DNA of 64,000 bases from Methanocaldococcus sp. 16A (GTDB taxonomy: Archaea; AGJL01; Methanococci; Methanococcales; Methanocaldococcaceae). Under the pieces are notes generated by a model, which was not told the DNA's origin, searched no databases, and was given only the letters and a program-made list of their open reading frames with translations. Position 1 is the first letter of the stretch; the number at the start of each line of letters is the position of its first letter. The translations under genes and the position numbers were made by a program. Location: the NCBI GenBank assembly GCA_049860595.1, contig CP187551.1, one strand, 5' to 3'. Below are positions 5,651 through 27,418 of this stretch, piece by piece.

Positions 5651-5662
5651 TTGGTGTTAATT

Positions 5663-7747
5663 ATGAAGAAAGTTTTAGATATTTTAAGAGATTTAGGTAT
5701 AGAGGAGCTTAGACCGCCGCAAAAAAAGGCATTAGAGAGAGGTTTATTGGATAAAAATAAAAATTTTTTAATTTCTATACCAACAGCCTCAGGAAAAACA
5801 CTAATTGGAGAAATGGCTTTAATAAATCACTTATTAGATGATAACAAAAAACCTACAAATAAAAAAGGCATCTTTATAGTGCCTTTAAAGGCATTGGCAT
5901 CAGAAAAATATGAAGAATTTAAAAGCAAATATGATAGGTTTGGATTAAAAATAGCTTTATCAATTGGAGATTACGATGAAGATGAGGATTTAAGTAGATA
6001 TCATTTAATTATAACAACAGCTGAAAAACTTGACTCTCTATGGAGGCATAAAATTGATTGGATTAACGATGTTTCTGTTGTTGTAGTTGATGAAATCCAT
6101 TTAATTAATGATGAGACAAGAGGAGGGACATTAGAAATTTTATTAACTAAATTAAAAGAATTTAATATACAAATTATTGGTTTGTCAGCTACAATAGGGA
6201 ATCCAGATGAATTGGCTGAGTGGCTTAATGCTGAGCTTATAGTTGATGATTGGAGACCTGTTGAGTTAAAAAAGGGAATTTATAAAGAAGGAGTTATAGA
6301 ATACATAAATGGAGGAAATAAAGAAATAGAAGCTATTAATGATAACGATATATACAACTTAGTTGTTGATTGTGTGAAAGAAGGAGGATGCTGTTTAATA
6401 TTTTGCAACACCAAAAAAGGAGCAGTTAATGAGGCAAAAAAATTAAATTTAAAGAAATTTTTAACAGATAAGGAAAAGAGAAAGCTAAAAGAAATAGCTG
6501 AAGAGATTTTATCCATCTTAGAGCCACCAACTGAAATGTGTAAAACTTTAGCTGAATGCATTTTAAAAGGGGTTGCGTTTCATCATGCTGGTTTAACTTA
6601 TCAGCATAGAAAAATTATTGAAAAATCTTTTAGAGAGAGGTTAATTAAAGTTATTTGCTGCACTCCGACGCTTAGCGTTGGCATTAACGCGCCTTGTAGA
6701 AGGGCAATAGTTAAAGATTTAACGAGATATACAAATAGAGGAATAAGATACATTCCAATAATGGAAATTCAGCAATGTATAGGAAGAGCAGGGAGACCTG
6801 GCTTAGATCCTTATGGAGAGGGAATAATAATAGTAAAAAATGATAGAGATTATTTTAGGGCTTATCAGGCATTGACTCAAAAGCCAGAGCCTATATATTC
6901 AAAGCTCTCAAATCAGGCAGTTTTGAGAATACAACTTTTAGGGCTTATAGCTACAAGAGAGATTAAAGATGAGTATGATTTAGAATGGTTTATAAAAAAT
7001 ACTTTCTATGCTCATCAATATGGAAATTTGAGGGAAGTTGCTAAGAATATTAATGAAGTCATTAGATTTTTGGAAGAAAATGAGTTTATTGTTGATTTTA
7101 TACCTACTGAATTAGGAAAGAGGGTTTCTGAACTTTACATAGACCCGCTGTCAGCCAAATATATAATAAATGGTTTATATGAAATGGAAAATGAAGAAGA
7201 GATTTATTATCTATACTTAATCTCAAAAACTTTAGAAATGAGGCCAAATTTAAGAGTTTATAAATCTGAGGAGTTGGATTTAATTGATGAAATGTATAAT
7301 CTTGGAATAAAAAGCTTTGAGATAGAGGATTTGGAGGCATTTAAAACAGCTAAAATGTTATATGATTGGATTAATGAAATTCCAGAAGATGAAATTTTAA
7401 AGAAATACAAAATTGAGCCGGGGATTTTAAGATATAAGGTTGAAAATGCTGTTTGGATGATGCATGCTTTAAAAGAGATTGCTAAAATAATTGGCAAAAG
7501 CTCAGAAATTCCAGAGAAGTTAGAAATAAGGTTGGAATATGGAGCTAAGGAAGATATTATTGAGCTTTTAAGTGTAAAATACATTGGAAGAGTTAGAGCG
7601 AGAAAGCTGTATAATGCTGGAATTAGAAGTGTTGATGATATTATAAACAATCCTTCAAAAGTAGCCTCAATTATTGGAGAAAAGATAACTAAGAAGATTT
7701 TGGATGAGTTAGGAGTTAAATTTGGACAGCAAAAATTAAATCTCTAA
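5663..7747 (+). CDS. hel308: Hel308/Ski2-like SF2 DNA helicase, no intein
   Basis: PTASGKT, DEIH, LSAT, FHHAGL, QCIGRAGRPG, C-terminal HhH (IGRVRARKLY). Confidence 0.92.
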   Translation: MKKVLDILRDLGIEELRPPQKKALERGLLDKNKNFLISIPTASGKTLIGEMALINHLLDDNKKPTNKKGIFIVPLKALASEKYEEFKSKYDRFGLKIALSIGDYDEDEDLSRYHLIITTAEKLDSLWRHKIDWINDVSVVVVDEIHLINDETRGGTLEILLTKLKEFNIQIIGLSATIGNPDELAEWLNAELIVDDWRPVELKKGIYKEGVIEYINGGNKEIEAINDNDIYNLVVDCVKEGGCCLIFCNTKKGAVNEAKKLNLKKFLTDKEKRKLKEIAEEILSILEPPTEMCKTLAECILKGVAFHHAGLTYQHRKIIEKSFRERLIKVICCTPTLSVGINAPCRRAIVKDLTRYTNRGIRYIPIMEIQQCIGRAGRPGLDPYGEGIIIVKNDRDYFRAYQALTQKPEPIYSKLSNQAVLRIQLLGLIATREIKDEYDLEWFIKNTFYAHQYGNLREVAKNINEVIRFLEENEFIVDFIPTELGKRVSELYIDPLSAKYIINGLYEMENEEEIYYLYLISKTLEMRPNLRVYKSEELDLIDEMYNLGIKSFEIEDLEAFKTAKMLYDWINEIPEDEILKKYKIEPGILRYKVENAVWMMHALKEIAKIIGKSSEIPEKLEIRLEYGAKEDIIELLSVKYIGRVRARKLYNAGIRSVDDIINNPSKVASIIGEKITKKILDELGVKFGQQKLNL

Positions 7748-7767: not shown

Positions 7768-7865
7768 AATAGGACTTTCGCAGTTTATATATTAAATTTT
7801 GACCTTTGACACCTCTAAGTGTCCTATATTTAATAGATAAAATTCATTCTTGCGAAAGTTCTATT
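7768..7865. mobile_element. MITE-like palindromic element, family A (left border of nif island; overlaps nifE 3' end)
   Basis: TIR AATAGGACTTTCGCA/TGCGAAAGTTCTATT, central GACAC-CTCTAA-GTGTC hairpin. Confidence 0.8.
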
Positions 7866-9184
7866 TTAAACTCAATCATCTTCCAAATTGGATGATATAT
7901 TGCTTTATAAATTTCCCTTGCAAGATTTAAGAAACCAATAAATCCTGTGAATGGATAGAAATCTTGAGGAAATGATAAGAATGGGATGCCAAATTTTACA
8001 GCCATGTATTTTTCTTTTGTTCCACCAACAAAGATATCTGGCTTTTTGTGCTTAAATATCAACTCTAAATCAATTTTTGAAGCATCATCAACTAAGATAG
8101 TGTTGTCATCTACATTAATATAGGCATCTAAGTAATCTTCTAAACTCCCAAATTGTGAGCCAACAGACACAATTTCCATATCTAAATCTTTAAAGGCAGA
8201 TGTTAGCATACCAATTTTTGAAGCTCCCATAAATATGCCAACTCTTTTCCCTTTCAACTTTTCCATATAAAATAATAACTCATCCTTTATTTTTTCAAAC
8301 TCTTCTTTTATAACCTCTCTTCCCCTATCTTCAATCCCAAAGAATTTTGCAATCTCCATTATTGACTTTTGGGTGTTGCTTAATCCAATAAATGAAACCT
8401 TTAATTGTGGGATACCATATTTTTCTTCCATATAATCAGCTATATATTTACCAGTTCTTCTACAATGGACAAGATTTAGCTTAGCATTTTTTGAATTTTT
8501 TATATCTTCTATTGTGCAATCTCCTGTAAATGTTGCTATAACCTCTATACCCAATTTATTTAGCAAATCTTTAATAACCTTTGTTTCATTACATATATCA
8601 TATTCTCCAATGATATTAACTGTTAATTTATCTTTAAATCTTTTTTTGTACTCTCCTTCTTTAATTAATCTAAATAATGCCTTCATTGCAATTTCATGAC
8701 CCTTTGATTGATGATATCCGCAAAATCCAGGACAAATTATTGGAATTATAGGAACTCTTAAAATTTCTTCAGCATCTTTACAAATGCTTTCTATGTTATC
8801 TCCAATCAATGCTGGAACGCAAGTTATATAAACAAAAACCGCATCTCCTCCCAATTCTTTATGAGCTTCAATTATTGTGTTGTATAATTTTTTTTCTCCC
8901 CCATAAACTACATCTTCAATCTGCATGTCTGTTGAAGCTATGACATATCTTTTTTTCCTAACATTCTGCCCATAAAAAGCACAACCTACTGGTGAGTGTA
9001 TAATATGAAGAGTGTTTTTTATTGGAGCTAAAATCCATCTTGCTCCATAGTATGGACAGCTTCTCTGATTAACAACACCAGGAGATGATTTTTTATCTGA
9101 TAATGGAATCCCATCCTTTTTTAGTGTAATTTTGTATGGAAGAACTTTTACATTATTAGCTTTACCATAATTTGTTTTATTCAT
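7844..9184 (-). CDS. nifE: NifE-like nitrogenase cofactor scaffold subunit (no adjacent nifN)
   Basis: RSCPYYG, HSPVGC, STDMQIEDVVYGGEKKL, ITCVP, QSKGH, LVHCRR; lacks the NifD His442 motif. Confidence 0.8.
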   Translation of the reverse strand: MNKTNYGKANNVKVLPYKITLKKDGIPLSDKKSSPGVVNQRSCPYYGARWILAPIKNTLHIIHSPVGCAFYGQNVRKKRYVIASTDMQIEDVVYGGEKKLYNTIIEAHKELGGDAVFVYITCVPALIGDNIESICKDAEEILRVPIIPIICPGFCGYHQSKGHEIAMKALFRLIKEGEYKKRFKDKLTVNIIGEYDICNETKVIKDLLNKLGIEVIATFTGDCTIEDIKNSKNAKLNLVHCRRTGKYIADYMEEKYGIPQLKVSFIGLSNTQKSIMEIAKFFGIEDRGREVIKEEFEKIKDELLFYMEKLKGKRVGIFMGASKIGMLTSAFKDLDMEIVSVGSQFGSLEDYLDAYINVDDNTILVDDASKIDLELIFKHKKPDIFVGGTKEKYMAVKFGIPFLSFPQDFYPFTGFIGFLNLAREIYKAIYHPIWKMIEFKIELSQE

Positions 9185-9816
9185 ACTATCTCCTTCAGCA
9201 CTTCAATTAATTTTTTGTAATCGCTGAAGTATTCACTTGGTGGATGCAAAATGTATAAAGAGCCATTTTTGAAAATCTTAACGCCTAAAATCTCTCCCTC
9301 ACTATTCTCAATAATTGGTTCATAGTCCCAATGTTCATAATCACAAATTAAAGAGAGGGTATCAACTATCCCCAACTTTCCATCTTCATCTTCAATATCA
9401 TATATATGGCTGTATTTTTCAATTAAATCAACATATTTTGAAAATTTTTCATCTTTAGCTTTAATATCCTCCCCATCTTTACATTTAACAACGAATTTAT
9501 CTCTTGTTAGATGTTTCATCAAATAATGCTCTAATATTCTTCCTTTTGATATATTTTTGAAATATGGGTCTATAACAACAACTTTTGGCTCATTCTCGCT
9601 TTCTAAAACTTCTTTAACTTTTATATCCTTCAATATTGTGAAAATACTTGATTGATTTGCTGAATATGAAGTTAAATCCTTAAAGAATAAAGGAAGGTAG
9701 ATTATTGATAAATCATACTTTGCTACGTCTATTTTGTTGAATGGGATGAATAAACAATCCTCTACATCGTAAGAATCGACATCATCAAGTTTTTTTCCTA
9801 AGAATAAAACTTTCAT
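9181..9816 (-). CDS. Hypothetical protein translationally coupled to nifE
   Basis: 211-aa ORF, GAGGT RBS, ATGA overlap with nifE start, own NrpR/BRE/TATA cassette. Confidence 0.75.
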   Translation of the reverse strand: MKVLFLGKKLDDVDSYDVEDCLFIPFNKIDVAKYDLSIIYLPLFFKDLTSYSANQSSIFTILKDIKVKEVLESENEPKVVVIDPYFKNISKGRILEHYLMKHLTRDKFVVKCKDGEDIKAKDEKFSKYVDLIEKYSHIYDIEDEDGKLGIVDTLSLICDYEHWDYEPIIENSEGEILGVKIFKNGSLYILHPPSEYFSDYKKLIEVLKEIV

Positions 9817-9864
9817 GCTTTCAACCTCTACATTTTCTTGTTATCTTAAAATTTTTAATGAATG

Positions 9865-9900
9865 ATATATAAACTTTTCGGTATTAGGAAACTTATTTCC
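9865..9900 (-). promoter_or_regulatory. NrpR operator (GGAA-N6-TTCC, 9887-9900) + BRE + TATA
   Basis: Minus strand GGAAATAAGTTTCC-TAATA-CCGAAAAG-TTTATATA. Confidence 0.8.
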
Positions 9901-9976: not shown

Positions 9977-10162
9977 TTACTCTTCTAAAATTATTGCATC
10001 ATTTGGACAGGTATCTTTGCAAACCTCACAATAAGTGCAATCTTCCTCTTTTGCAACAACTACTTTATCTCCATCAACTTCAAAAACATCCATTGGACAG
10101 ACATCTACACATTCTGCACATTCAGTTCCTTTGCACAAGTCGTAATTTATCTTTACTGCCAT
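9977..10162 (-). CDS. 2[4Fe-4S] ferredoxin
   Basis: CKGTECAECVDVCP and CTYCEVCKDTCP; GGTGA RBS before ATG at 10162. Confidence 0.9.
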   Translation of the reverse strand: MAVKINYDLCKGTECAECVDVCPMDVFEVDGDKVVVAKEEDCTYCEVCKDTCPNDAIILEE

Positions 10163-10172
10163 TCCATCACCA

Positions 10173-10424
10173 TTAACTATGATTTTGAATATATTTTTGA
10201 GCAACTACTCTATTTAATCTCCTCAATACCGTTGTAATCATCATCTTTAATTCTTCTGTTGTTATCTCATCGTGTATCCTATTTTCTATTCTTTTAATAA
10301 CCTCTTTAACTAATTCTTCATCCGCCCCAGAATTTCTTAAAGAATTTTTAACCTTTTCAAAGTCAAATTTTTCTTTGCTTCCATCACTCTTTGTTATATA
10401 CACCTTTGCTAACACTTCATCCAT
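10173..10424 (-). CDS. Stand-alone ATP-cone domain protein
   Basis: YITKSDGSKEKFDFEKVKNSL...ITTEEL, the V.KRDG..E.F..KI ATP-cone pattern. Confidence 0.8.
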   Translation of the reverse strand: MDEVLAKVYITKSDGSKEKFDFEKVKNSLRNSGADEELVKEVIKRIENRIHDEITTEELKMMITTVLRRLNRVVAQKYIQNHS

Positions 10425-10702
10425 TTTATACCCCCAGTAATTGATAAATTTGGTTTTATGTAGAAAATATTTAATTTTCTTAATTTTTTTAGCATAGAAG
10501 AGAATTTAGCTTTTAAATTAAAAGTTTTAAATTCATAATCAAAATTGTAAGAGTTATAGACCATAATTTTATCTCCAACCTTGATGTTGTTAGCAATTGG
10601 AATTATCATCTCTCTAATCTCTCCATTAATCTCAATTAGTGGAACTTTAACATTATCTTTTATTACAAATCCTCTAAAAATTCCCACTTCTCCATAGCAC
10701 AT
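10409..10702 (-). CDS. Divergent HypC/HupF-like small OB-fold protein
   Basis: Starts M-C; GEIREM...IKVGDKIMVY resembles HypC GVKREV...VKVGDYVLVH. Confidence 0.5.
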   Translation of the reverse strand: MCYGEVGIFRGFVIKDNVKVPLIEINGEIREMIIPIANNIKVGDKIMVYNSYNFDYEFKTFNLKAKFSSMLKKLRKLNIFYIKPNLSITGGIKWMKC

Positions 10703-10712
10703 AATTCCACCG

Positions 10713-11042
10713 TTATTTTTCTGCTTCTCTAACCTTAAATAACCAATTTATTCCATATTTTTTTAGAGTTTCCTTTATTGTATCAATTATATCATCAGGA
10801 ACTCCATAATTTTTTAATTCATCAACGCTATTAACCTCTTCAGGACTTCCATAACCGCTCTCTATTTCATCAATCAAATACTTTGCCACAATTCCTGGAG
10901 TATTTTCAACCTTCACGGCCTCAAATAATAACGCATCTTTATGAGGAATCTCTTTCTTTTTTATATAAAATACAATACAATGAAAGTCATCTCCTTCAAC
11001 AATATTCCCAAATTCATCGTATTTTTTAAATTCTACTATCAT
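10713..11042 (-). CDS. Hypothetical protein directly downstream of nifK
   Basis: 109-aa acidic ORF with GAGGGGG RBS. Confidence 0.75.
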   Translation of the reverse strand: MIVEFKKYDEFGNIVEGDDFHCIVFYIKKKEIPHKDALLFEAVKVENTPGIVAKYLIDEIESGYGSPEEVNSVDELKNYGVPDDIIDTIKETLKKYGINWLFKVREAEK

Positions 11043-11106: not shown

Positions 11107-12501
11107 TTATTGCTGTTTCTGGTCCCATGGAACTTGTGTATCTAATATTGTATTAACTATATCATCAAAGAATCTTAAGCTTCCCATATATCCGACAATT
11201 GGCCATCTGAAGTATCCAACTCTATCATAGATAGGGAAACCCATTCTTACTAACCCAATTCCTAAATCTTCAGCTATCTTTGCCCCTCCTCTTGGATGTC
11301 CAATTAGTAAATCTACTCCAATTTTTTTAACTGATTTTTCAAAGTCCCATAAATCAGAGAACTGTACTTCAATATCAACGTCATACTCTTGAGCTATTGC
11401 CTCCATGTCTTTCTTGTATGTTGTAGATGGAGTTTGTGTATTAACAACAACTGGCTTCATTCCCATCTCACAAGCAAATCTTGAAACTGCTATAACAAAG
11501 TCGGGGTCTCCAAAGATTCCAACTTTCTTATCCATTGTGTAGTGGATTGTATCTACTATAGCATCTATCAACTTCCCTCTCTCATCCAACAACTTGTCAG
11601 GAATCTCCATTCCAGTAACTTTTGCTATATTTATGATGAAATCATCAGTATTTTTAATTCCAATTGGTAATCCATAGTAAGCAGGAATCTTGTATCTTCT
11701 CTGCAAGAATAAAGCCCCGCTACCACCAGCATGCCTACATAAAACAAACAATGCCTTAGCATTAATTATCTCTTCAAATTCTTCAACTTTAGTTCCACCT
11801 TTTGGATAGTAAGGAATTTCTTTTATTGGCTCTCTTAACGGCTGATATAATGTCTCACTAATATCAAATAATACTGAATAATCTTCCCCTTCTTTTAATC
11901 CAAACATATCTAATATCCTTTTAATCTCCAATATATCTCCAGGATTAACTCCAAATCCTGGAACTATCATTATTTTTTCAGCTTTTTCTTCATCTCTTTT
12001 CTTTCCAGATGTGAAGTATTGGAAAAATGCCTTTACAGCATTATCATAACCTTTAACATGGCTTGCCTGGTAAGATGGACAATGTACTGGAATTATTGGC
12101 AACTTAGCTTTTTCTTCTCCAAACTCTGCTGCAATCTTCTTTCTTGCAGCCCTAATAAATGCTTCAACATCATCTCCAATGGTCTCAGATGAACATGTTG
12201 TTACAACTGAAATTAAATCAGGGTCGTATCTTGCTACTAAGTTTCTAACCCCTTCAACTAAGTTTCTCATCCCTCCATAAACAGCGGCATCTTCGTGGAA
12301 TGAGGCTACAGCAATTGTTGCAGGCTCTCTAAAATGTCTGTTGAATGTATATCTTACATAAGTACAACATCCTTGAGAACCTTGTACAAATGGAATTCCT
12401 CTATGCACTCCCAAAGTAGCCCACATTGCACCAATTGGCTGACATGTTTTGTTAGGGTTTATAGTTCCTGCTCTCTCTTTTTCAACATAAGTTATTCCCA
12501 T
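11107..12501 (-). CDS. nifK: Nitrogenase component I beta subunit
   Basis: INPNKTCQPIGA, GSQGCC, TTCSSETIGDD, PSY, GFPIYDRVG; P-cluster ligands present. Confidence 0.95.
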   Translation of the reverse strand: MGITYVEKERAGTINPNKTCQPIGAMWATLGVHRGIPFVQGSQGCCTYVRYTFNRHFREPATIAVASFHEDAAVYGGMRNLVEGVRNLVARYDPDLISVVTTCSSETIGDDVEAFIRAARKKIAAEFGEEKAKLPIIPVHCPSYQASHVKGYDNAVKAFFQYFTSGKKRDEEKAEKIMIVPGFGVNPGDILEIKRILDMFGLKEGEDYSVLFDISETLYQPLREPIKEIPYYPKGGTKVEEFEEIINAKALFVLCRHAGGSGALFLQRRYKIPAYYGLPIGIKNTDDFIINIAKVTGMEIPDKLLDERGKLIDAIVDTIHYTMDKKVGIFGDPDFVIAVSRFACEMGMKPVVVNTQTPSTTYKKDMEAIAQEYDVDIEVQFSDLWDFEKSVKKIGVDLLIGHPRGGAKIAEDLGIGLVRMGFPIYDRVGYFRWPIVGYMGSLRFFDDIVNTILDTQVPWDQKQQ

Positions 12502-12545
12502 AAATATCACCTATAAAAATATAAATTTAGTTTAAAGAGATTAGA

Positions 12546-13988
12546 TTAGTTGTTTGTGTTTTCTTTCTTTTTAAATTCTTCAAATTTCTTCTCTCCTTCT
12601 TTTAAAATGTTCCAAATTGGATGATATACTGCTTTGTAAATATCTCTTGCGAAATTGACAAATCCTTTAAACGCAGCATAAGGTCCTTGTTCATAGCTGT
12701 GAGAGTTAATTGTTGGAATTCCAAACTTTCTGAATAAATATCTCTCCTTTAGTCCAGTAAGCATAAAGTCAGGTTTGTATTTTTCAACAGCTTCCTCTAA
12801 CTCAAGTTCATTTGGTGCATCTATAACTAAAGTTCCTTTAAGCCCAGCCTTTTTCAAGTTTTTATTTAACTTTTCATAATCATCTTCATGAGCAAATGTA
12901 CAGCATGCTACTACAACATCTATTCCTAACTCTTTCATTGCCCTAACCCAGTGCCATGTTCTTGGTCCCCCAACATAGACAAGGCAAGTTTTTCCTTCTA
13001 ATTTTGATTTATAAAAATCCAATTGTGGTTTAATTGCCTCCAATTCTTCTTTTATAACTTCCTCAACTCTTTCTTTAGGAATTCCTAAAGCTTCTGCAGT
13101 TTTTCTTAATGCTTCAGCAGTTTGCTCAATTCCAAATAGAGAGACCCAAATTCTTGGGACATTGAACCCATCTCTAATCATCTCAGCTATATAGTTAGCT
13201 GACCTCTGACAATGGACAACGTTCAATTTAACATCCGGCAATTTGAACAAATCATCTAAGGATGCATTTCCTGTAAAGACTGCAACAACTCTACATCCAA
13301 TTTTTTCAAATAATGGAACTATTACTTTTAAATCCCAGTCCATGTTGTAATCTCCAATTATTGCAATATCGTAAGGTGTTTTTTCCTCATCTTTCAAGCA
13401 TTTTTCAGGATATCTTTCCCTTGCCTTTTTTAACCATCTATAGAACTCTGTGTTGAGTATGTGATGCCCCTTTGATTGAGAAACCCCTGCATATCCTGGA
13501 CAGTTACAGGCAAAGACTGGTTTTCCTATTTTTTCCTCAACTTTTCTTGCCACAGCCTCTAAGTTATCTCCAATTAATCCAGTTGTACATGTTGCGTAAA
13601 TAAATATTCCCTTAGCTTCTGGAAATTCAGCAGCTGCCTCTAAACATGCTTTCTCTAATTTCTTCTCTCCACCATAAACAACATCTGCCTCTTGCATATC
13701 TGTTGTAAAACAATATCTCCTATGCAACTCACAATCAGATAGGTTTCTTCTTGTACCCCATGTATAGAATGCACATCCAACAGGGCCATGAACCATGTGA
13801 ATAATATCTTTAATTGGCCCACCAACGACCCCTCTTGCTCCAGCAAACGAACAACCTCTCTCTGTCATATCTCCTGGAACTGTTTTGATATTACATGCTG
13901 GAATTATCTCTTCTTCAGGGTCGTAGATGTACGTATGTTTCATCCTTTCTGGAATTGGCTTATCACAGTTAAGCAATACGAATGGCAT
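12546..13988 (-). CDS. nifD: Nitrogenase component I alpha subunit
   Basis: RGCSFAG, HGPVGC, ATCT, QSKGHH, VHCQRS (Cys275 equivalent), NSHSYEQGPY (His442 equivalent). Confidence 0.95.
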   Translation of the reverse strand: MPFVLLNCDKPIPERMKHTYIYDPEEEIIPACNIKTVPGDMTERGCSFAGARGVVGGPIKDIIHMVHGPVGCAFYTWGTRRNLSDCELHRRYCFTTDMQEADVVYGGEKKLEKACLEAAAEFPEAKGIFIYATCTTGLIGDNLEAVARKVEEKIGKPVFACNCPGYAGVSQSKGHHILNTEFYRWLKKARERYPEKCLKDEEKTPYDIAIIGDYNMDWDLKVIVPLFEKIGCRVVAVFTGNASLDDLFKLPDVKLNVVHCQRSANYIAEMIRDGFNVPRIWVSLFGIEQTAEALRKTAEALGIPKERVEEVIKEELEAIKPQLDFYKSKLEGKTCLVYVGGPRTWHWVRAMKELGIDVVVACCTFAHEDDYEKLNKNLKKAGLKGTLVIDAPNELELEEAVEKYKPDFMLTGLKERYLFRKFGIPTINSHSYEQGPYAAFKGFVNFARDIYKAVYHPIWNILKEGEKKFEEFKKKENTNN

Positions 13989-13997
13989 TTTATCACC

Positions 13998-14384
13998 TTA
14001 GTTACCTACTGCCTCTGCACCAAACTCTCCTGTTCTTATTCTTATTGCATCTTCAACTGGTAAAACAAAGATTTTCCCATCTCCTGGCTTTCCAGTTCTA
14101 TTTACTTTCATTATAATTCCAACAACCAATGGAACATCAGCATCGTCCACAACTATAGAAATCATCCTTTTTGGGATGTATTTCATTCTCATTCCCAACT
14201 TTTCCCCTTCTTCAATAATTTTCTCTTTATCTACAACATCTGGTAAATTTACATCAATATATCCTTTCTCTTTACCCCTTCCAAAGCATTTAATAACAGT
14301 CATCGCTGGAAAGCCAACAGCTTCTAATGCTTTCCCTGTTTTTGAGACCATATTTGGTCTAATTATAGCCAAAACCTCTTTCAT
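13998..14384 (-). CDS. nifI2: PII-family nitrogenase regulator NifI2
   Basis: MKEVLAIIRPN, GRGKEKG, GDGKIFV, IRIRTGE. Confidence 0.92.
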   Translation of the reverse strand: MKEVLAIIRPNMVSKTGKALEAVGFPAMTVIKCFGRGKEKGYIDVNLPDVVDKEKIIEEGEKLGMRMKYIPKRMISIVVDDADVPLVVGIIMKVNRTGKPGDGKIFVLPVEDAIRIRTGEFGAEAVGN

Positions 14385-14397
14385 TATTTCACCAAAA

Positions 14398-14715
14398 TTA
14401 TAACTCTTTAGCTCCAGTTCTGATTGTGTATGCTTCCTCTATTGGCTGAATGAAAATTTTTCCATCTCCAAAGTTTCCAGTGTAAGCGTTAGTTTTTATA
14501 ATTTCTACAACTTCATCAACTTCATCATCATTAACACCAATTAGTAGCATTGTTTTTGGCAATTCGTCATAGAATATCTCTCCAACTTTCAATCCTCCCT
14601 GCTTTCCCCTACCAACAACATCAATTTTTGTAAAAGATGGATAACCAGCTTTTTCTAAGGCATCTATTACATCATCAACTTTTTCTGGTCTGATAATTGC
14701 TTTTATTAACTTCAC
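14398..14715 (-). CDS. nifI1: PII-family nitrogenase regulator NifI1
   Basis: AIIRPEK, VVGRGKQGG, YDELPK, GDGKIF, TIRTG. Confidence 0.92.
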   Translation of the reverse strand: MKLIKAIIRPEKVDDVIDALEKAGYPSFTKIDVVGRGKQGGLKVGEIFYDELPKTMLLIGVNDDEVDEVVEIIKTNAYTGNFGDGKIFIQPIEEAYTIRTGAKEL

Positions 14716-14799: not shown

Positions 14800-15707
<908 letters not shown>

Positions 15708-15735
15708 GATGACAGTTTTATAATTTTATCTTATA

Positions 15736-15771
15736 ATATATATACTTTACGGTTATAGGCTACCTTTTTCC
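15736..15771 (-). promoter_or_regulatory. nifH BRE/TATA with degenerate upstream NrpR site
   Basis: ATATATATACTTTACGGTTATAGGCTACCTTTTTCC aligns ungapped to the 36-bp cassette. Confidence 0.65.
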
Positions 15772-15815: not shown

Positions 15816-16313
15816 TTAAGTCTTAGCTTTTTTCTTCTTTTTAACATGGAAATAATTTATTAATCCGCCAGCATCCAAAATTTCTCTCTCAATTCCTTTT
15901 GGAACTTCACATTTTAAAATGAGATTATCATTAACTATAATCTCCTCTCTATCTAAATCAATCTCAATTATATCTCCATCTTCAATCTCATCAGTATTAG
16001 CAATAATAGGGATTAATCCAATATTTATGGCATTTCTATAAAATATTCTTGCAAAACTTTTAGCTATAACTGCTTTAATTCCACAGTATTTTATTGCTAT
16101 TACTGCTTGCTCTCTACTTGAACCGCATCCAAAGTTTTCTCCTGCAGCTATTACATCTCCCTCTTTAACCTTCTTTGGAAAGTCTTTATCAATTCCATAC
16201 ATGCAATATCTCGCCAATTCATGTCCATCTGTTGTTTTTAGATATGGACCTGGAATAATTGCATCTGTATCGACATCATCTCCAAATTTATGAGCTTTTC
16301 CTCTAATATACAT
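15816..16313 (-). CDS. hacB: Homoaconitase/isopropylmalate isomerase small subunit (HacB/AksE-like), nif-linked
   Basis: KFGDDVDTDAIIPGPYLKT, NFGCGSSREQA, SFARIFYRNAIN; very close to methanogen HacB as recalled. Confidence 0.75.
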   Translation of the reverse strand: MYIRGKAHKFGDDVDTDAIIPGPYLKTTDGHELARYCMYGIDKDFPKKVKEGDVIAAGENFGCGSSREQAVIAIKYCGIKAVIAKSFARIFYRNAINIGLIPIIANTDEIEDGDIIEIDLDREEIIVNDNLILKCEVPKGIEREILDAGGLINYFHVKKKKKAKT

Positions 16314-16357
16314 AAATATCCCTCAATTCCTATTTTGTATATGAATTTATTTACATA

Positions 16358-16393
16358 TTATATAAAAGTTTCGGTATAAGGAAACTTATTTCC
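16358..16393 (-). promoter_or_regulatory. NrpR operator (16380-16393) + BRE + TATA for hacB-like gene; overlaps modC stop
   Basis: TTATATAAAAGTTTCGGTATAAGGAAACTTATTTCC, 32/36 identical to cassette at 9865. Confidence 0.8.
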
Positions 16394-17429
16394 GTATAAT
16401 GATAGAAGAAGCTATAGATATTTTTACTTCCATTCCTTTTTTGAGACCCATCCTATTTGCCTTAGACCTTATAACTTCACAAATTAAATTAATGCCATTA
16501 ACATCTAAAATAGCCCTAACAGTAGATAAGCTTAAAGGATAAATTTCAACGATTTTAGCATCAAAGAGGTTGTCTTTTTTGTAATGGTATCTACAGCCCC
16601 CATCTCCAACCAACATAATATCTTCAGGTCTTATTGCTAAAACTGCCTCTCCACACTCGTAAGGTTTATCAAGATAAATGTTTAAATCTCCTTCAAATAT
16701 ATAGTAGCCATCTTCTTTTTTAATTTTTCCTTTTAAGAAATTTTTGTATCCTACGAATTTTGCAACAAATTCATTTTTTGGATTGTTTATAATTTCATTA
16801 ACATCTCCAAACTGCTCTATCTTTCCATTCCTTATTATTGCCATTCTCTCTGCTAAGGCAATTGCTTCAATAAAATCATGAGTTACATGAACAAACGTTA
16901 AATTAGTATTTTTATGAATTTTTTTAAGTTCTAATATTAAATTTTCATGTGTTAGTCTATCTAAAGCATTTAAAGGTTCATCCAATAAAACAACCTCTGG
17001 TTCTACAACTAAAGCCCTTGCTAAAGCTACTCTCTGCTGTTCCCCTCCACTTAATGTGTCTGGTCTTCTATTTAGAAGATGTTCTATTCCCAGTAATTCA
17101 GCAATTTCTTTGACTTTCTCTTCTCTCAATTTTCTATCTTTTATACCAATGCCTATATTATCTTTAACACTTAAATGTGGAAATAAATATTTTCCATGGC
17201 ACATTACTATTTTTCTTTCATTTATTGGTTTGTTCGTTATATCTTTTCCATTCAAATAAATCTTTCCGCTATCTGGTTTTCTAAATCCGGCGATAATTTC
17301 CAATAGTGTAGTTTTTCCACTACCACTCAAACCTAAAACAACAAAATAATCATTTTTATATATTTCAAGTTCATCAATTTCAAGATTAAAGTATGCCAAT
17401 TTCTTCCTTAAATTTTCAATTTTGAGCAT
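16386..17429 (-). CDS. modC: Molybdate/tungstate ABC transporter ATPase with TOBE domain
   Basis: GLSGSGKTT, LSGGEQQRVALAR, LLDEP, VTHD. Confidence 0.85.
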   Translation of the reverse strand: MLKIENLRKKLAYFNLEIDELEIYKNDYFVVLGLSGSGKTTLLEIIAGFRKPDSGKIYLNGKDITNKPINERKIVMCHGKYLFPHLSVKDNIGIGIKDRKLREEKVKEIAELLGIEHLLNRRPDTLSGGEQQRVALARALVVEPEVVLLDEPLNALDRLTHENLILELKKIHKNTNLTFVHVTHDFIEAIALAERMAIIRNGKIEQFGDVNEIINNPKNEFVAKFVGYKNFLKGKIKKEDGYYIFEGDLNIYLDKPYECGEAVLAIRPEDIMLVGDGGCRYHYKKDNLFDAKIVEIYPLSLSTVRAILDVNGINLICEVIRSKANRMGLKKGMEVKISIASSIIIRK

Positions 17430-17431
17430 AA

Positions 17432-18139
17432 TCATCTCCCGAGGATGCAAAATCTCTCAACTCCTAATATTTTAGCCATTCCAGCAATTGTAGTTCCATA
17501 AAAAATAATTCTTTTATTGTATTTTTTAGCCAACTCCCAAATCTCTTCAAATGTTCCATTAGCTATCGTTGAACCAGTAGCTAAAACAACATCTGAATTT
17601 TTTATTAAATCCTCATTATACTTTCCATGAATGATTTTAGCTCCATATTTTATTTTTCCTACATTTTCTGGGTTTAAGTCACTAACTAAAACATTCTCTG
17701 CTCCAAAGTTATTAACAACCTCTTTAACAAATGCTGGCTGAAATCCAATAATACCAATTTTTTGTGGGTTTAATTCCTTTAGGTATTTAACAAGCTCTTT
17801 TGCACATTTTTCTGGCTCATCTCCAGTACAATGAACAGTTCTATCAACTAAGCCAAGAAATCTCATAACTGCATTTAAAGTTGCTATTATTTCAGCCCTA
17901 TTTCCTTTATCTAAAAGCTCTCTAATTGTTCCTTTAAACTCAACTGGTTTGTCTGTGAAGGCATCTCCATAACAACCTTTAAAATTAGCTCTCAACAAAA
18001 TCTCTTTACCACTCATTAAAGGGTAATCTTTGATTCTTGTTGTATCTAACTTAGTGTCTGATATTTTAATCTCAATTTCTTCATTTAGTAAGTTATTTTC
18101 TTCTGTAAGTTCTTTTAAAATTTCTTTAGCATCTACCAT
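17432..18139 (-). CDS. DUF364/Rossmann-like putative metal-chelation protein within mod operon
   Basis: ATLNAV, HC...PEKC, KIGIIGFQP, SDVVLATGSTIANGT. Confidence 0.7.
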   Translation of the reverse strand: MVDAKEILKELTEENNLLNEEIEIKISDTKLDTTRIKDYPLMSGKEILLRANFKGCYGDAFTDKPVEFKGTIRELLDKGNRAEIIATLNAVMRFLGLVDRTVHCTGDEPEKCAKELVKYLKELNPQKIGIIGFQPAFVKEVVNNFGAENVLVSDLNPENVGKIKYGAKIIHGKYNEDLIKNSDVVLATGSTIANGTFEEIWELAKKYNKRIIFYGTTIAGMAKILGVERFCILGR

Positions 18140-18929
18140 AGCTACCACCATTTAGATTTATTGCAAATTTTATCAATGAAATAACCATTATTGCAATTGC
18201 TATATGGATTACAGCAATAGCCAATGCTAATTCTATATTTCCAATTGAAACATTTAAAAATATTGCTATTGGTAATGTCTCTGTCTTCATCTTAGTAGCT
18301 CCAGCGAGCATTAATGTTGCTCCAAACTCTCCAATAGCCCTTGCCCATCCAAGAATTGCCCCAGCAACAATACCATTTTTTGCCATTGGAAGGGTTATTT
18401 TTAAAAAGCTCTCAAATCTACTCAATCCCAAACTTTGGGCAATATACTCATATTTGACATCAATTCCTTCAAACACAGCCCTTGTAGTTCTAATAATAAA
18501 TGGCGTTGCAATTATAAATTGAGCCAATATAATTCCATTTTGTGTAAATACAATCTCTACAATATTTTCTGAGATAAAATTGCCTATGGGTGTATTTCCT
18601 AACAGTAAGAGTAATCCAAAACCTAAAACCAATGGAGGAAGTAATATTGGCAAGTTTATTAAGCTGTCTATAATTTCCTTACCCTTAAAATTATTTCTTG
18701 CTAAGGCATATCCAGAAGGAATCCCAATTAATAGAGCAAGTAAAGTAGCTATAATTGAACATTTGACACTTAAAATTACAGCAAATTTAACCTCTTCTGA
18801 TAACAATGCATCAAATAAGTTTTCTATTGATATTTTGCTAAATATACAGACTATTATACAAACAAGTATCCCAAGGAATAAAATTAAGGGAATACCCATA
18901 AAAAATTTTAAATTATTATTTTTAATCAT
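18126..18929 (-). CDS. modB: Molybdate ABC transporter permease
   Basis: LPILLPPLVLGFGLL, ITLPMA, WARAIGEFGAT. Confidence 0.88.
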   Translation of the reverse strand: MIKNNNLKFFMGIPLILFLGILVCIIVCIFSKISIENLFDALLSEEVKFAVILSVKCSIIATLLALLIGIPSGYALARNNFKGKEIIDSLINLPILLPPLVLGFGLLLLLGNTPIGNFISENIVEIVFTQNGIILAQFIIATPFIIRTTRAVFEGIDVKYEYIAQSLGLSRFESFLKITLPMAKNGIVAGAILGWARAIGEFGATLMLAGATKMKTETLPIAIFLNVSIGNIELALAIAVIHIAIAIMVISLIKFAINLNGGSYGRC

Positions 18930-18944
18930 AATTATCACTTGATT

Positions 18945-19724
18945 TTATTGCTCAATAACTTCGAAACCATGCTTCTTAAATATCTCTTTTCCTTCTGTTA
19001 AAACAAAGTTGTAGAATTTCTCAGCAGTTTCTTTATTTTTTGTAGTTTTTAGTATTGCAATAGGAACTGTCTTTATAACATTGTATTTTGGATTTATTGG
19101 GATAATATCAACCTTATCTTTGTTTTCTATGGCATCTGCCCTCCACACAACAGCAACATCTGCCTGACCTTCTATAACATACAATAATACCTGTTTAACT
19201 GTAGCTCCTCTAACAACTACATTTTTATTTATTTTTTCTGTTATTCCTGGATTGTCTTTTTCTGCCTTTGCAAGAATCTTTTTAAATGTCCTACCAATTG
19301 CTATGTTCTCATCACCTAACGCTACTTTAACTCCTGGTTTTCCTAAGTCTTCAAGACATGTTATATTTTTTGGATTTCCTTTCTGAACTACAATAACTGG
19401 GATATGTTTGGTGAAGTTTGTGTATTTTAAGATGTATCCTCTCTTTTCAAGTTCTCCAACATAGAAATAAGCCCCTGGCATAAAAATGTCTCCATCATTT
19501 GATGCTAAAATTTTTGAATATAGGTAGCCGCTTCCAGCGTAATCATATTCAACTTTTATCCCATATTTTTCTTCAAAGAGCTTTCCTATCTCATCCATCG
19601 GTTTTTGCATTCCAGCACCAACATAAGCATGTATAACTTCTTCTTTTGATTCTTTATTTGTGCATCCAGAAGCTAAGACTATTGCTACAATTAATAATCC
19701 AAATATTGTTATTTTTCTGTTCAT
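18945..19724 (-). CDS. modA: Molybdate-binding lipoprotein
   Basis: Lipobox LASGC, YAGSG, DIFMPG, AIG, TVKQV. Confidence 0.85.
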   Translation of the reverse strand: MNRKITIFGLLIVAIVLASGCTNKESKEEVIHAYVGAGMQKPMDEIGKLFEEKYGIKVEYDYAGSGYLYSKILASNDGDIFMPGAYFYVGELEKRGYILKYTNFTKHIPVIVVQKGNPKNITCLEDLGKPGVKVALGDENIAIGRTFKKILAKAEKDNPGITEKINKNVVVRGATVKQVLLYVIEGQADVAVVWRADAIENKDKVDIIPINPKYNVIKTVPIAILKTTKNKETAEKFYNFVLTEGKEIFKKHGFEVIEQ

Positions 19725-19836
19725 AATATCCCAAGATTTAGTAATTAAATATAATTACATTTTGAGGTCGTATGTAATTACTATTACTTGTCATACGCCT
19801 TTTCTATATAAACCTTATCTTTAGAATTTATATATT

Positions 19837-19872
19837 ATATATAAACTTTTCGGTATTAGGAAACTTATTTCC
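19837..19872 (-). promoter_or_regulatory. NrpR operator (19859-19872) + BRE + TATA for mod operon
   Basis: Exactly identical to 9865-9900. Confidence 0.82.
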
Positions 19873-19910
19873 TACATTTTTTAAGACAATTATAATACTA
19901 ATAGAAAATT

Positions 19911-19946
19911 ATATATAAACCTTTCGGCATAAGGAAGTATAATTCC
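19911..19946. promoter_or_regulatory. NrpR operator (19933-19946) + BRE/TATA, abutting RBS of MBL gene
   Basis: ATATATAAACCTTTCGGCATAAGGAAGTATAATTCC. Confidence 0.75.
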
Positions 19947-25699: not shown

Positions 25700-25810
25700 A
25701 TTTACACCTCAAAAGTTTTTTAAATCAATCGAATAATTTTTAGTATTAATTCATCTTATAAATATCTATTTAACTGCATTTATACTCTTTTTTACACATA
25801 AGTGGAAAAA

Positions 25811-27418
25811 TCATTCCACATATCTCGCTCTCTTTTCAACATCTTTCATCAAATCTAATATAATTTCCCATCTATCATAGACGCTTTTATAACCTTCTAA
25901 GAATTTATCCCAAATTTCCTGAAACTTTTCATGGTGTGTTGATAACACAGCTTTTTTAAAGACTATTAAATCAACAGCTTTATCCTCATCAAGATTTGAA
26001 ATCTTTCCTAAACCAAAGTCAATAATATAGAGATTTCCATCATATAAAAAGTTAGATGTGGTTAAATCATTATGAATTATATCATTTTTATGTAATTTTC
26101 CAACGATTTCTCCAATTTTATAGGCGATATCTAAGTTATCTTCAATAACATCTTTAGCTAATTTTCCATTAATATAGCTCATCATAATTCTTTTATTGTA
26201 TAAATCAACATCAAAGATGTATGGTGCTGGGATGCCAAAATCTTTAACCATTGCTAAATATCTTGCCTCTCTTGCTGTTCTACTTTTTCTTATCTTCTCA
26301 TCTAATCTCTCATCTCTATAGCTTTTTTTAACCCTCTCTTTTATTATAACATCAAAATCCAAATACTTATCTTTTTTAATATCTGCCTCTGCCCCTTTGC
26401 CAATTAAATGTTCTGGAATCTTCCTCTCTTTACCTTTAATTTCTTTTATCCAATTAACTTCAACCATATCAGTCCTATAGTTTGGAATTACCTTTGTTTC
26501 ATCTAAACTCATAAATTTTCCATTTTTATGCATTAACAAACCAAGCCATGCAATCATAGCTCCATTATCTCCACAAAATTCTTTTGGTGGCACATAGAAC
26601 TCTACATTCTGCCCTTCACACATTGCTTTTAACATATCTCTCAATCTGTTATTTGCCGCAACACCACCAACAAGCATAACCTCTCCTTTATTTGTGTGAG
26701 CTAAAGCTCTTTCAGTTATTTCAGTAAGCATTGAGAATGCATATTCTTGTAGAGAATAGCAGATATCCTCCAATCTCTCTCCAGCGTCATAAGCCCTCAT
26801 AGCGGCAGTTAATAAACCTGAAAAGGCGATGTCCATTCCTTTAACTGTATATGGCAAATCAATTAATTTTTTTCCTTTCTTTGCTAATTCCTCTATATAA
26901 GGTCCCCCAGGATGTGGAAGATTTATATATCTTGCAAACTGGTCTAAGCAGTTACCAACGGCTATATCTAATGTCTCTCCAAAGACCCTATATTTTTTTG
27001 AAACATAAGCTATAACTTGAGTGTTTCCTCCACTAACATATAGGGTTAGAGGGTCTTCAGCTTCAGTAGTTAATTTACCAATTTCTATATGAGCTATGCA
27101 GTGATTAACTCCAATTATTGGTTTTTTTAATGTTAAAGAGAGAGTTCTTGCTACTGTTGCAGTTACTCTTAAACTTGGCCCTAATCCTGGACCTTGAGAA
27201 AAGGCAATCAAATCAATCTCATTTTTATCTACAACTTCAAAAGCCTCTTTTATAAGCTTAGGAAATGTTTCAGCATGATGGTCAGCGGCTTCTCTTGGAT
27301 TAATTCCTTGTTTTGGAGGTTTATACAATATAGTTTTGTTAAATAAAACTTCTCCATCTGAAGTAACAATTCCTACTCCAGTTTTTTCTGCAGTTCCTTC
27401 TAATCCTAAACAAATCAT
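25811..27418 (-). CDS. kae1: Bifunctional Kae1-Bud32 (t6A synthesis, KEOPS)
   Basis: GLEGTA, NHCIAH, SGGNTQ, DNGAMIA; kinase [17 protein letters not shown]. Confidence 0.95.

Follow-up and report, generated by a model that had tools for sequence, protein, structure and literature searches.

The orphan gene hp4 and its lone nifE partner in a nifN-less Methanocaldococcus genome

The stretch analyzed here (64,000 nucleotides of contig CP187551.1, assembly GCA_049860595.1; hereafter the window) comes from Methanocaldococcus sp. 16A and carries a nitrogen fixation (nif) island in which a two-gene operon, hp4-nifE, encodes a 211-amino acid (aa) protein and a NifE-type subunit of the maturase for nitrogenase's iron-molybdenum cofactor (FeMoco). 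As judged from sequence comparison, Hp4 is a true orphan that is linked only to lone nifE, strongly conserved, and unrelated to NifN, and thermophilic Methanococcales appear to carry two unrelated maturase modules. These are the points added here; the hp4-nifE operon without nifN is already known from a 2022 publication that included knockout genetics, and the nifN-less case is recognized and under genetic study. The underlying question is nevertheless worthwhile, since completion of FeMoco without NifN bears on the minimal nitrogen-fixation gene set, which is relevant to moving nitrogenase into crops, and on whether maturases or nitrogenases arose first. The locus is part of the best natural test case, in which a hyperthermophile relative is described, in the available part of the source, as making authentic FeMoco with only nifHDKE and nifB.

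The locus is almost certainly the published hp4-nifE system of nifN-less diazotrophic Methanocaldococcus. This operon is known from Methanocaldococcus sp. FS406-22, where Lie et al. (2022, PMC8809328) named four orphans hp1-hp4 and reported a 4-nt hp4/nifE overlap, a TATA box and an NrpR operator before each operon, nifN nowhere in the genome, and nifB elsewhere. The same gene order, overlap, operator and TATA, absence of nifN, distant nifB, and hp1-hp2-hp3-fd after nifK were found here, and the 211-aa frame was assigned to Hp4 as an orphan open reading frame (ORF) that directly precedes nifE, overlaps it by 4 nt, and stands in a thermophilic methanogen's nif cluster behind an NrpR-type operator and TATA. 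Ours is another genome with no functional difference apparent, and the two were likened by layout and text, not by Hp4 sequence identity. The observation made in a preliminary description of the window, together with all three of its scaffold hypotheses, is thus to be found in that earlier paper (PMC8809328).

The hp4-nifE operon in a genome without nifN

The elements of the operon and of its control were as follows (BRE, transcription factor B recognition element).

9181-9816, minus strand: hp4 (211 aa), orphan accessory gene; matches the published hp4 description
7844-9184, minus strand: lone nifE (446 aa), NifE-type maturase subunit without a NifN partner gene (PF00148)
9181-9184, minus strand: ATGA in which the hp4 stop and the nifE start overlap, read from the sequence
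9887-9900, minus strand: NrpR-type operator GGAAATAAGTTTCC, upstream of hp4 in a 160-bp spacer
9866-9880, minus strand: BRE/TATA-like element cgaaaag-tttatata, 6 nt downstream of the GGAAATAAGTTTCC operator
9824-9829, minus strand: hp4 Shine-Dalgarno-like agaggt, 7 nt ahead of the ATG
5651-7747, plus strand: Hel308-like helicase gene, converging on nifE from downstream
15694-15707, minus strand: NrpR-type operator of the nifH operon, downstream of the nifH TATA-like box

The minus-strand order was nifH-I1-I2-D-K-hp1-hp2-hp3-fd, followed by the 160-bp spacer, hp4, and nifE. The preliminary description had read the 211-aa ORF and nifE as a two-gene operon joined by an ATGA overlap, and this reading was borne out by the overlap at 9181-9184 and by the helicase gene, whose convergence with nifE limits the operon to two genes. 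The overlap was present in four of six orthologous loci (window included), and the remaining two had spacers of 2 and 26 nt. A putative NrpR-type operator in front of the operon, also described earlier, was recovered as GGAA-N6-TTCC at 9887-9900, and an NrpR-type gene (a 542-aa frame with two PF01995 domains) was found in the genome. The exact motif stood ahead of hp4 in five of the six loci; the sixth had a version with two mismatches, just 44 nt past the ferredoxin gene. A CCGAAA(A/G)-TTTATATA element followed the operator in four of the six, and we take cgaaaag-tttatata in the window to be the BRE/TATA by archaeal consensus. The window had 7 copies of GGAA-N6-TTCC where 1.35 were expected, and 0 of 100 shuffles contained that many. 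Nitrogen limitation plausibly controls a translationally coupled two-gene transcript via the predicted operator. Two other copies of the motif, at 11600-11613 (inside nifK) and 25804-25817 (at the edge of a Kae1-Bud32 gene), are probably there by chance or of obscure meaning.

The absence of nifN, previously noted for the island, held for the whole genome (1.62 Mb, 99.98% complete, order Methanococcales). The nifN model TIGR01285 matched nifK alone, with 271 bits against a cut-off of 326.8, and PF00148 was found genome-wide in four genes, namely nifK, the lone nifE, nifD, and a 355-aa CfbD-like frame, with no further candidate nifN. A NifB-like radical-SAM gene lay far from the island and matched just model positions 10-305 of 441, and one 104-aa PF02579 ORF was found elsewhere in the genome.

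The lone NifE gave a full-length match to PF00148 (338 bits), in which residues 43-429 covered profile positions 1-398 of 399. It scored 402.4 bits with the nifE equivalog TIGR01283, below the cut-off of 505.1, and 410.2 bits with the generic alpha-subunit model TIGR01862, which is slightly above the TIGR01283 score and below the cut-off of 486.05. The Cys ligands were retained, as claimed in the preliminary description: Cys43, Cys68, Cys122, and Cys241 were invariant in a 50-sequence alignment and lined up with conserved Cys in NifD and NifE chains of known structure. By equating them with named Azotobacter residues, we take them to be three interface-cluster Cys and the cofactor-type Cys. 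Phe405 was aligned with the His of NifD 'NSHSYE' (chain 9spz_A), presumably the NifD molybdenum ligand, whose absence would set NifE apart from NifD. Azotobacter vinelandii NifEN (PDB 3pdi) shares the full-length PF00148 NifE-type subunit and the conserved Cys (alignment with 3pdi_A, E 1.7e-57), and the window NifE aligned end to end with a fused NifEN (9i0g, E 1.7e-81). It differs from both in having no NifN partner, in falling below the TIGR01283 cut-off, and in belonging to a clade separate from canonical NifE.

Hp4 had no Pfam or NCBIfam match, and its profile found nothing under E 0.28 among PDB sequences, in agreement with the earlier description of the 211-aa protein as unknown. When the nine family members were searched singly against Pfam at E up to 1, only single-member chance matches were obtained. 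Among 5.8 billion proteins, Hp4 had nine relatives; all named ones were from Methanococci (M. infernus, M. indicus, and Methanotorris igneus, annotated as hypothetical proteins) and 67-91% identical, and there was one fragment besides. The profile gave two matches among 1.84 billion representative proteins, both of the Hp4 family. Comparison with NifN/NifK by hhalign yielded a probability of 0.2%, and that with NifE 0.3%. Furthermore, none of the nine members matched the NifX/NafY-type family PF02579 at E up to 1. A counterpart of the NifX-like domain was considered for Hp4 and rejected, because that domain was C-terminal in 5 of 5 NifE fusions, hp4 lies upstream, and PF02579 was not matched. 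The ratio of nonsynonymous to synonymous substitution rates (dN/dS) was 0.05-0.08 for hp4 and 0.07-0.09 for nifE in the three least saturated genome pairs, farther pairs being saturated; hp4 is under purifying selection as strong as that on nifE. The invariant residues of Hp4 include a single Cys (Cys21) and His97, His102, His137, and His191.

In the ESM Atlas, Hp4 was closest to unnamed clusters (0.94-0.95, with 152-160 features in common), and the named matches at 0.90-0.93 were MJECL34, a beta-galactosidase trimerisation domain, LBP_M, DUF2194, and ThuA. Several of these presumably represent one alpha/beta fold class. By the tool's own rating the family call is probably wrong, and these matches serve as a lead only. 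A pleckstrin homology (PH)-like fold was discarded: in a comparison with 48,161 PDB chains it covered residues 131-211 only of a low-confidence model, with Z of at most 6.4, below the noise level of 7-8.

Distribution of Hp4 and phylogeny of the lone NifE

Distribution was examined in 40 Methanococcales genomes, the window genome included. Hp4 was found in eight, comprising six of one genus (g1) and both of another (g5), and a NifE-like gene started directly downstream of hp4 in all eight. Seven of these had exactly one match to the NifK/NifN family, which was NifK; the eighth (G008, 86% complete) had none. Hp4 was present in none of the 12 genomes with two NifK/NifN-family genes (NifK and NifN) and in none of the 20 without nif genes. 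The link of the 211-aa ORF with nifN-less clusters, named as a check in the preliminary description, was recovered: the ORF was always beside a lone nifE, and neither a nifN elsewhere in the genome nor a spread of the ORF among non-diazotrophs was seen. The closest Hp4 in the sample was 91% identical and the closest NifE 88%. In G016, of the same genus (loci L019 and L020), hp4-nifE lay ~215 kb from nifH-I1-I2-D-K-hp1-hp2 and kept its own operator and TATA, and the genes between nifK and hp4 differed from genome to genome. These results indicate that hp4-nifE is the constant pair. However, because the Hp4-bearing genomes are close kin, the distribution may reflect only one or two events.

NifE trees were calculated with FastTree (137 rows) and with IQ-TREE (quick search, mixture model), the latter from 40 of those rows chosen to represent each group. 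The trees were unrooted, and the support values given are those of the Shimodaira-Hasegawa-like approximate likelihood ratio test (SH-aLRT) in IQ-TREE. The two trees agreed on the placements that follow. Archaeal lone NifE formed a single group (support 100). It was sister to a Caldicellulosiruptor-type group (96), a join that FastTree flagged as long branches meeting, and was nested in a clade of thermophilic-bacterial lone NifE (99), which in turn joined canonical NifE (99), apart from NifD. By contrast, NifE of the nifN-bearing genera g3 and g4 (L022-L026, L029, L030) fell on the NifD side (99) and was only 35-40% identical to lone NifE, whereas NifD and NifK of these genera were 72-80% identical to those of the window genome. 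The combination of near-orthologous NifHDK with a differently placed NifE means that thermophilic Methanococcales would carry two unrelated maturase modules, hp4-nifE and a separately rooted nifEN; these placements suggest that the g3/g4 module has a separate origin or was exchanged. The preliminary description had further proposed an ancestral cofactor-assembly route. This was not sustained: the lone NifE lies inside the bacterial lone-NifE clade, and as roots were not inferred, neither 'ancestral' nor 'loss' is shown for it.

Among the matches listed, the nearest bacterial relatives of the lone NifE were 40-48% identical. A NifX-like PF02579 domain was present on 12 of the 120 relatives listed, members of the bacterial lone-NifE clade, and was C-terminal in each of the five fusions checked (P0020, P0024, P0034, P0038, P0053); archaeal lone NifE had no such domain. 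The lone-nifE neighborhoods outside Methanococcales among the matches listed were three bacterial or metagenome-assembled loci (L032-L034), the rest being mostly canonical nifEN, and the Caldicellulosiruptor-type sisters were not among them. These three loci had short radical-SAM NifB-like, homocitrate-synthase-like, and ModA-like neighbors, and neither NifN nor an Hp4-like ORF near nifE. Bacterial lone NifE and NifE-NifX fusions ('F-Mc'/group C of Garcia et al. 2020 and Dos Santos et al. 2012, as far as the available parts of those papers describe them) thus resemble the present system as its nearest relatives, of one clade and with no adjacent nifN (L032-L034), and differ from it in that some carry the NifX-like domain and none has Hp4 at the loci examined. 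At one g5 locus (L014, G038:C119), the match of the NifE-like gene to the nifE model was split into two parts inside a single 498-aa open frame, which suggests an insertion of ~35 residues; the source protein for this gene (P0017) has 492 aa.

Possible roles of Hp4

In FS406-22, cells with an in-frame hp4 deletion showed a lag and grew more slowly under diazotrophic conditions, and the deletion was complemented. When the nifE ribosome-binding site was removed as well, growth on N2 was poorer still, yet not lost, and deletion of hp1-hp2-hp3-fd had no negative effect; hp4 is therefore not strictly required, and nifE apparently is not either (PMC8809328). As scaffold options, Lie et al. discussed NifDK self-maturation, NifE alone, NifE-Hp4, and NifE-NifK aided by Hp4 (PMC8809328). 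The missing nifN had been noted earlier by Dos Santos et al. (2012) and by Garcia et al. (2020); according to the available text of the latter, a NifE homodimer or homotetramer was proposed for the 'F-Mc' clade, and trees were unable to separate loss from primitive absence. In the part of the preprint by Maslac et al. that was available, the FeMoco in M. infernus NifDK crystals is called 'chemically identical' to that of Azotobacter, accessory proteins did not co-purify, and NifI1,2 were the sole associated proteins; the words NifE, NifN, Hp4, and maturase are all absent from that text. Roseiflexus sp. RS-1 NifDK is reported, in the portion of the paper available, to mature without any NifEN (Paya-Tormo et al. 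2024, PMC11573651). This thermophile likewise departs from the nifHDKENB minimum, with a possible basal route via NifDK, and differs in having neither nifE nor nifN, whereas the window genome keeps a nifE that appears regulated and selected. Literature searches found no later paper (2022 on) resolving the mechanism of nifN-less NifE/Hp4. The non-canonical cofactor route of the preliminary description, partly supported here, follows fairly from the absent nifN and the tie of the ORF to the lone nifE.

Our preferred reading, to which as a whole mechanism we give about an even chance, is that Hp4 serves as a lineage-specific accessory factor to a NifE maturase that is helpful but not essential. 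Hp4 would be made in step with the lone NifE by translational coupling and would most likely bind NifE, stabilizing or loading it, for example when the NifB product is passed on at very high temperature, and would not be a structural stand-in for NifN. The beta-type partner of NifE would be NifE itself or NifK, and NifDK would keep a slower NifE-independent route. That Hp4 acts with NifE is suggested by the translational coupling, the pairing in the split cluster, the equal constraint, and the common nitrogen operator. An accessory role was rated above replacement of NifN because bacterial lone NifE occurs without Hp4 and because Hp4 is not related to NifN and is half as large. Likewise, the slower independent route of NifDK is suggested by the growth left in the double-defect strain and by the precedent of Roseiflexus. 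Since L032-L034 have no Hp4, Hp4 would be an add-on and not a requirement of lone NifE. Its role may be an adaptation to growth at very high temperature, Hp4 being, we assume, confined to hyperthermophilic genera.

The accessory reading had to be weighed against four others. One of the arrangements proposed by Lie et al. (PMC8809328), that Hp4 is a non-homologous replacement of NifN that, on binding to the lone NifE, completes the scaffold via an interface-cluster ligand or the cofactor pocket, would account for the presence of Hp4 with a nifN-less nifE in 8 of 8 genomes against 0 of 12 nifN-bearing ones, for the coupling of the two genes, and for the invariant Cys21 and His97/102/137/191. We nevertheless regard it as quite improbable, as Hp4 has 211 aa against the ~440-470 aa of NifN and no profile similarity to NifN/K, bacterial lone NifE stands in clusters without Hp4, and an hp4 deletion strain still fixes nitrogen (PMC8809328). 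If true, it would mean a new kind of heteromeric FeMoco maturase that arose in hyperthermophilic methanogens. In NifEN, the three interface Cys of NifE need a fourth ligand from the partner, which counts for a NifE-NifK hybrid scaffold whose mixed assembly is aided by Hp4 or in which Hp4 does something else. Indeed, the window NifE retains these three Cys, NifK is the sole NifN homologue in the genome (with the 271-bit score on the nifN model), and NifN and NifK have a common invariant Cys column in a 12-sequence alignment. The hybrid was also proposed by Lie et al. (PMC8809328). It appears rather unlikely; the native M. infernus NifDK preparations contained NifI1,2 alone, as far as the available preprint text goes, an observation that concerns NifDK and not NifE.

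A similarly doubtful alternative is a scaffold of NifE homodimers or homotetramers, as proposed for the F-Mc clade in the available text of Garcia et al. (2020), with Hp4 acting independently in molybdenum or homocitrate delivery or in high-temperature protection. The extension of the lone-NifE clade across bacteria and archaea (SH-aLRT 99) suggests a common partner-independent solution, but an independent Hp4 is difficult to reconcile with the split cluster of G016, where hp4 still accompanies nifE rather than nifHDK or the mod genes. Finally, NifDK might mature its own cofactor as in Roseiflexus, leaving NifE and Hp4 as dispensable leftovers or with a role outside FeMoco. Growth on N2 of the strain without hp4 and the nifE ribosome-binding site (PMC8809328) and the dispensability of NifEN for Roseiflexus NifDK, as stated in the available part of that paper (PMC11573651), agree with this. 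However, both hp4 and nifE are under strong purifying selection, the nitrogen operator was kept in five of six hp4 loci, and loss of hp4/nifE function slows diazotrophic growth, with hp4 complemented (PMC8809328), so that we hold it to be decidedly unlikely.

Several points weigh against the accessory role preferred here. The tie between Hp4 and NifE comes from genomic context, and operon sharing and co-occurrence come from only two genera of close kin, perhaps from a single evolutionary event. The target of Hp4 could be NifK, NifB, or the molybdenum or homocitrate supply rather than NifE. The published hp4 phenotype is mild (PMC8809328), and the sections of that paper considered here report no clean nifE deletion. 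At hp4 the putative operator lies upstream of the BRE/TATA (9866-9900), unlike at nifH, where it lies downstream (15694-15745); the upstream arrangement was seen in four of six hp4 loci. AlphaFold2 models of Hp4 had a mean predicted local distance difference test (pLDDT) score of 35.2 with a 9-sequence alignment and 43.6 with the single sequence; both were unusable, and such poor models provide no fold and no predicted ligand site. The Hp4 family is shallow (effective number of sequences, Neff, 1.55). When NifE (alignment of 50 rows) and Hp4 (9 rows) were modeled as a complex, without controls, the interaction score (ipSAE) was 0.00 in both runs, an outcome that counts neither way on binding. 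Because the structure and complex predictions failed, the mechanism is one that we infer.

The nif island and its neighbors

The remaining genes of the island and the adjoining transporter genes were as follows.

14800-15666, minus strand: nifH, named from its translation and BLAST reciprocity with relatives
14398-14715, minus strand: nifI1, named from its translation and BLAST reciprocity with relatives
13998-14384, minus strand: nifI2, named from its translation and BLAST reciprocity with relatives
12546-13988, minus strand: nifD, from the ORF list and an NCBIfam match
11107-12510, minus strand: nifK, from the ORF list and an NCBIfam match
10713-11042, minus strand: hp1, orphan ORF of 109 aa in the tail of the nifH operon
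10409-10702, minus strand: hp2, orphan ORF of 97 aa in the tail of the nifH operon
10173-10424, minus strand: hp3, 83 aa, ATP-cone, in the tail of the nifH operon
9977-10204, minus strand: ferredoxin (fd), 75 aa, 2x[4Fe-4S], ending the nifH operon (hp1-fd tail, 9977-11042)
18945-19724, minus strand: ModA-like, molybdenum/tungsten (Mo/W)-type transporter operon
18126-18938, minus strand: ModB-like, Mo/W-type transporter operon
17432-18151, minus strand: ORF of 239 aa with no family given, Mo/W-type transporter operon
16386-17450, minus strand: WtpC/ModC-like ATPase, Mo/W-type transporter operon

The window had a G+C content of ~30%. The longest nifH ORF (14800-15666) began with GTG; an ATG 9 bases into it, with gaggtga ahead, looks like the true nifH start. 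No nifV was found in the nif island. A homoaconitase small-subunit gene (HacB_Meth, 293 bits) lay directly upstream of nifH in the region 15816-16393 and was preceded by a GGAAACTTATTTCC site at 16380-16393. Homoaconitase acts on intermediates of the homocitrate pathway, and homocitrate is a component of FeMoco. The Mo/W-type ABC transporter operon (16386-19946, minus strand) adjoined the island, with two GGAA-N6-TTCC sites ahead of it (19859-19872 and 19933-19946), and looks like a nitrogen-regulated molybdenum uptake system.

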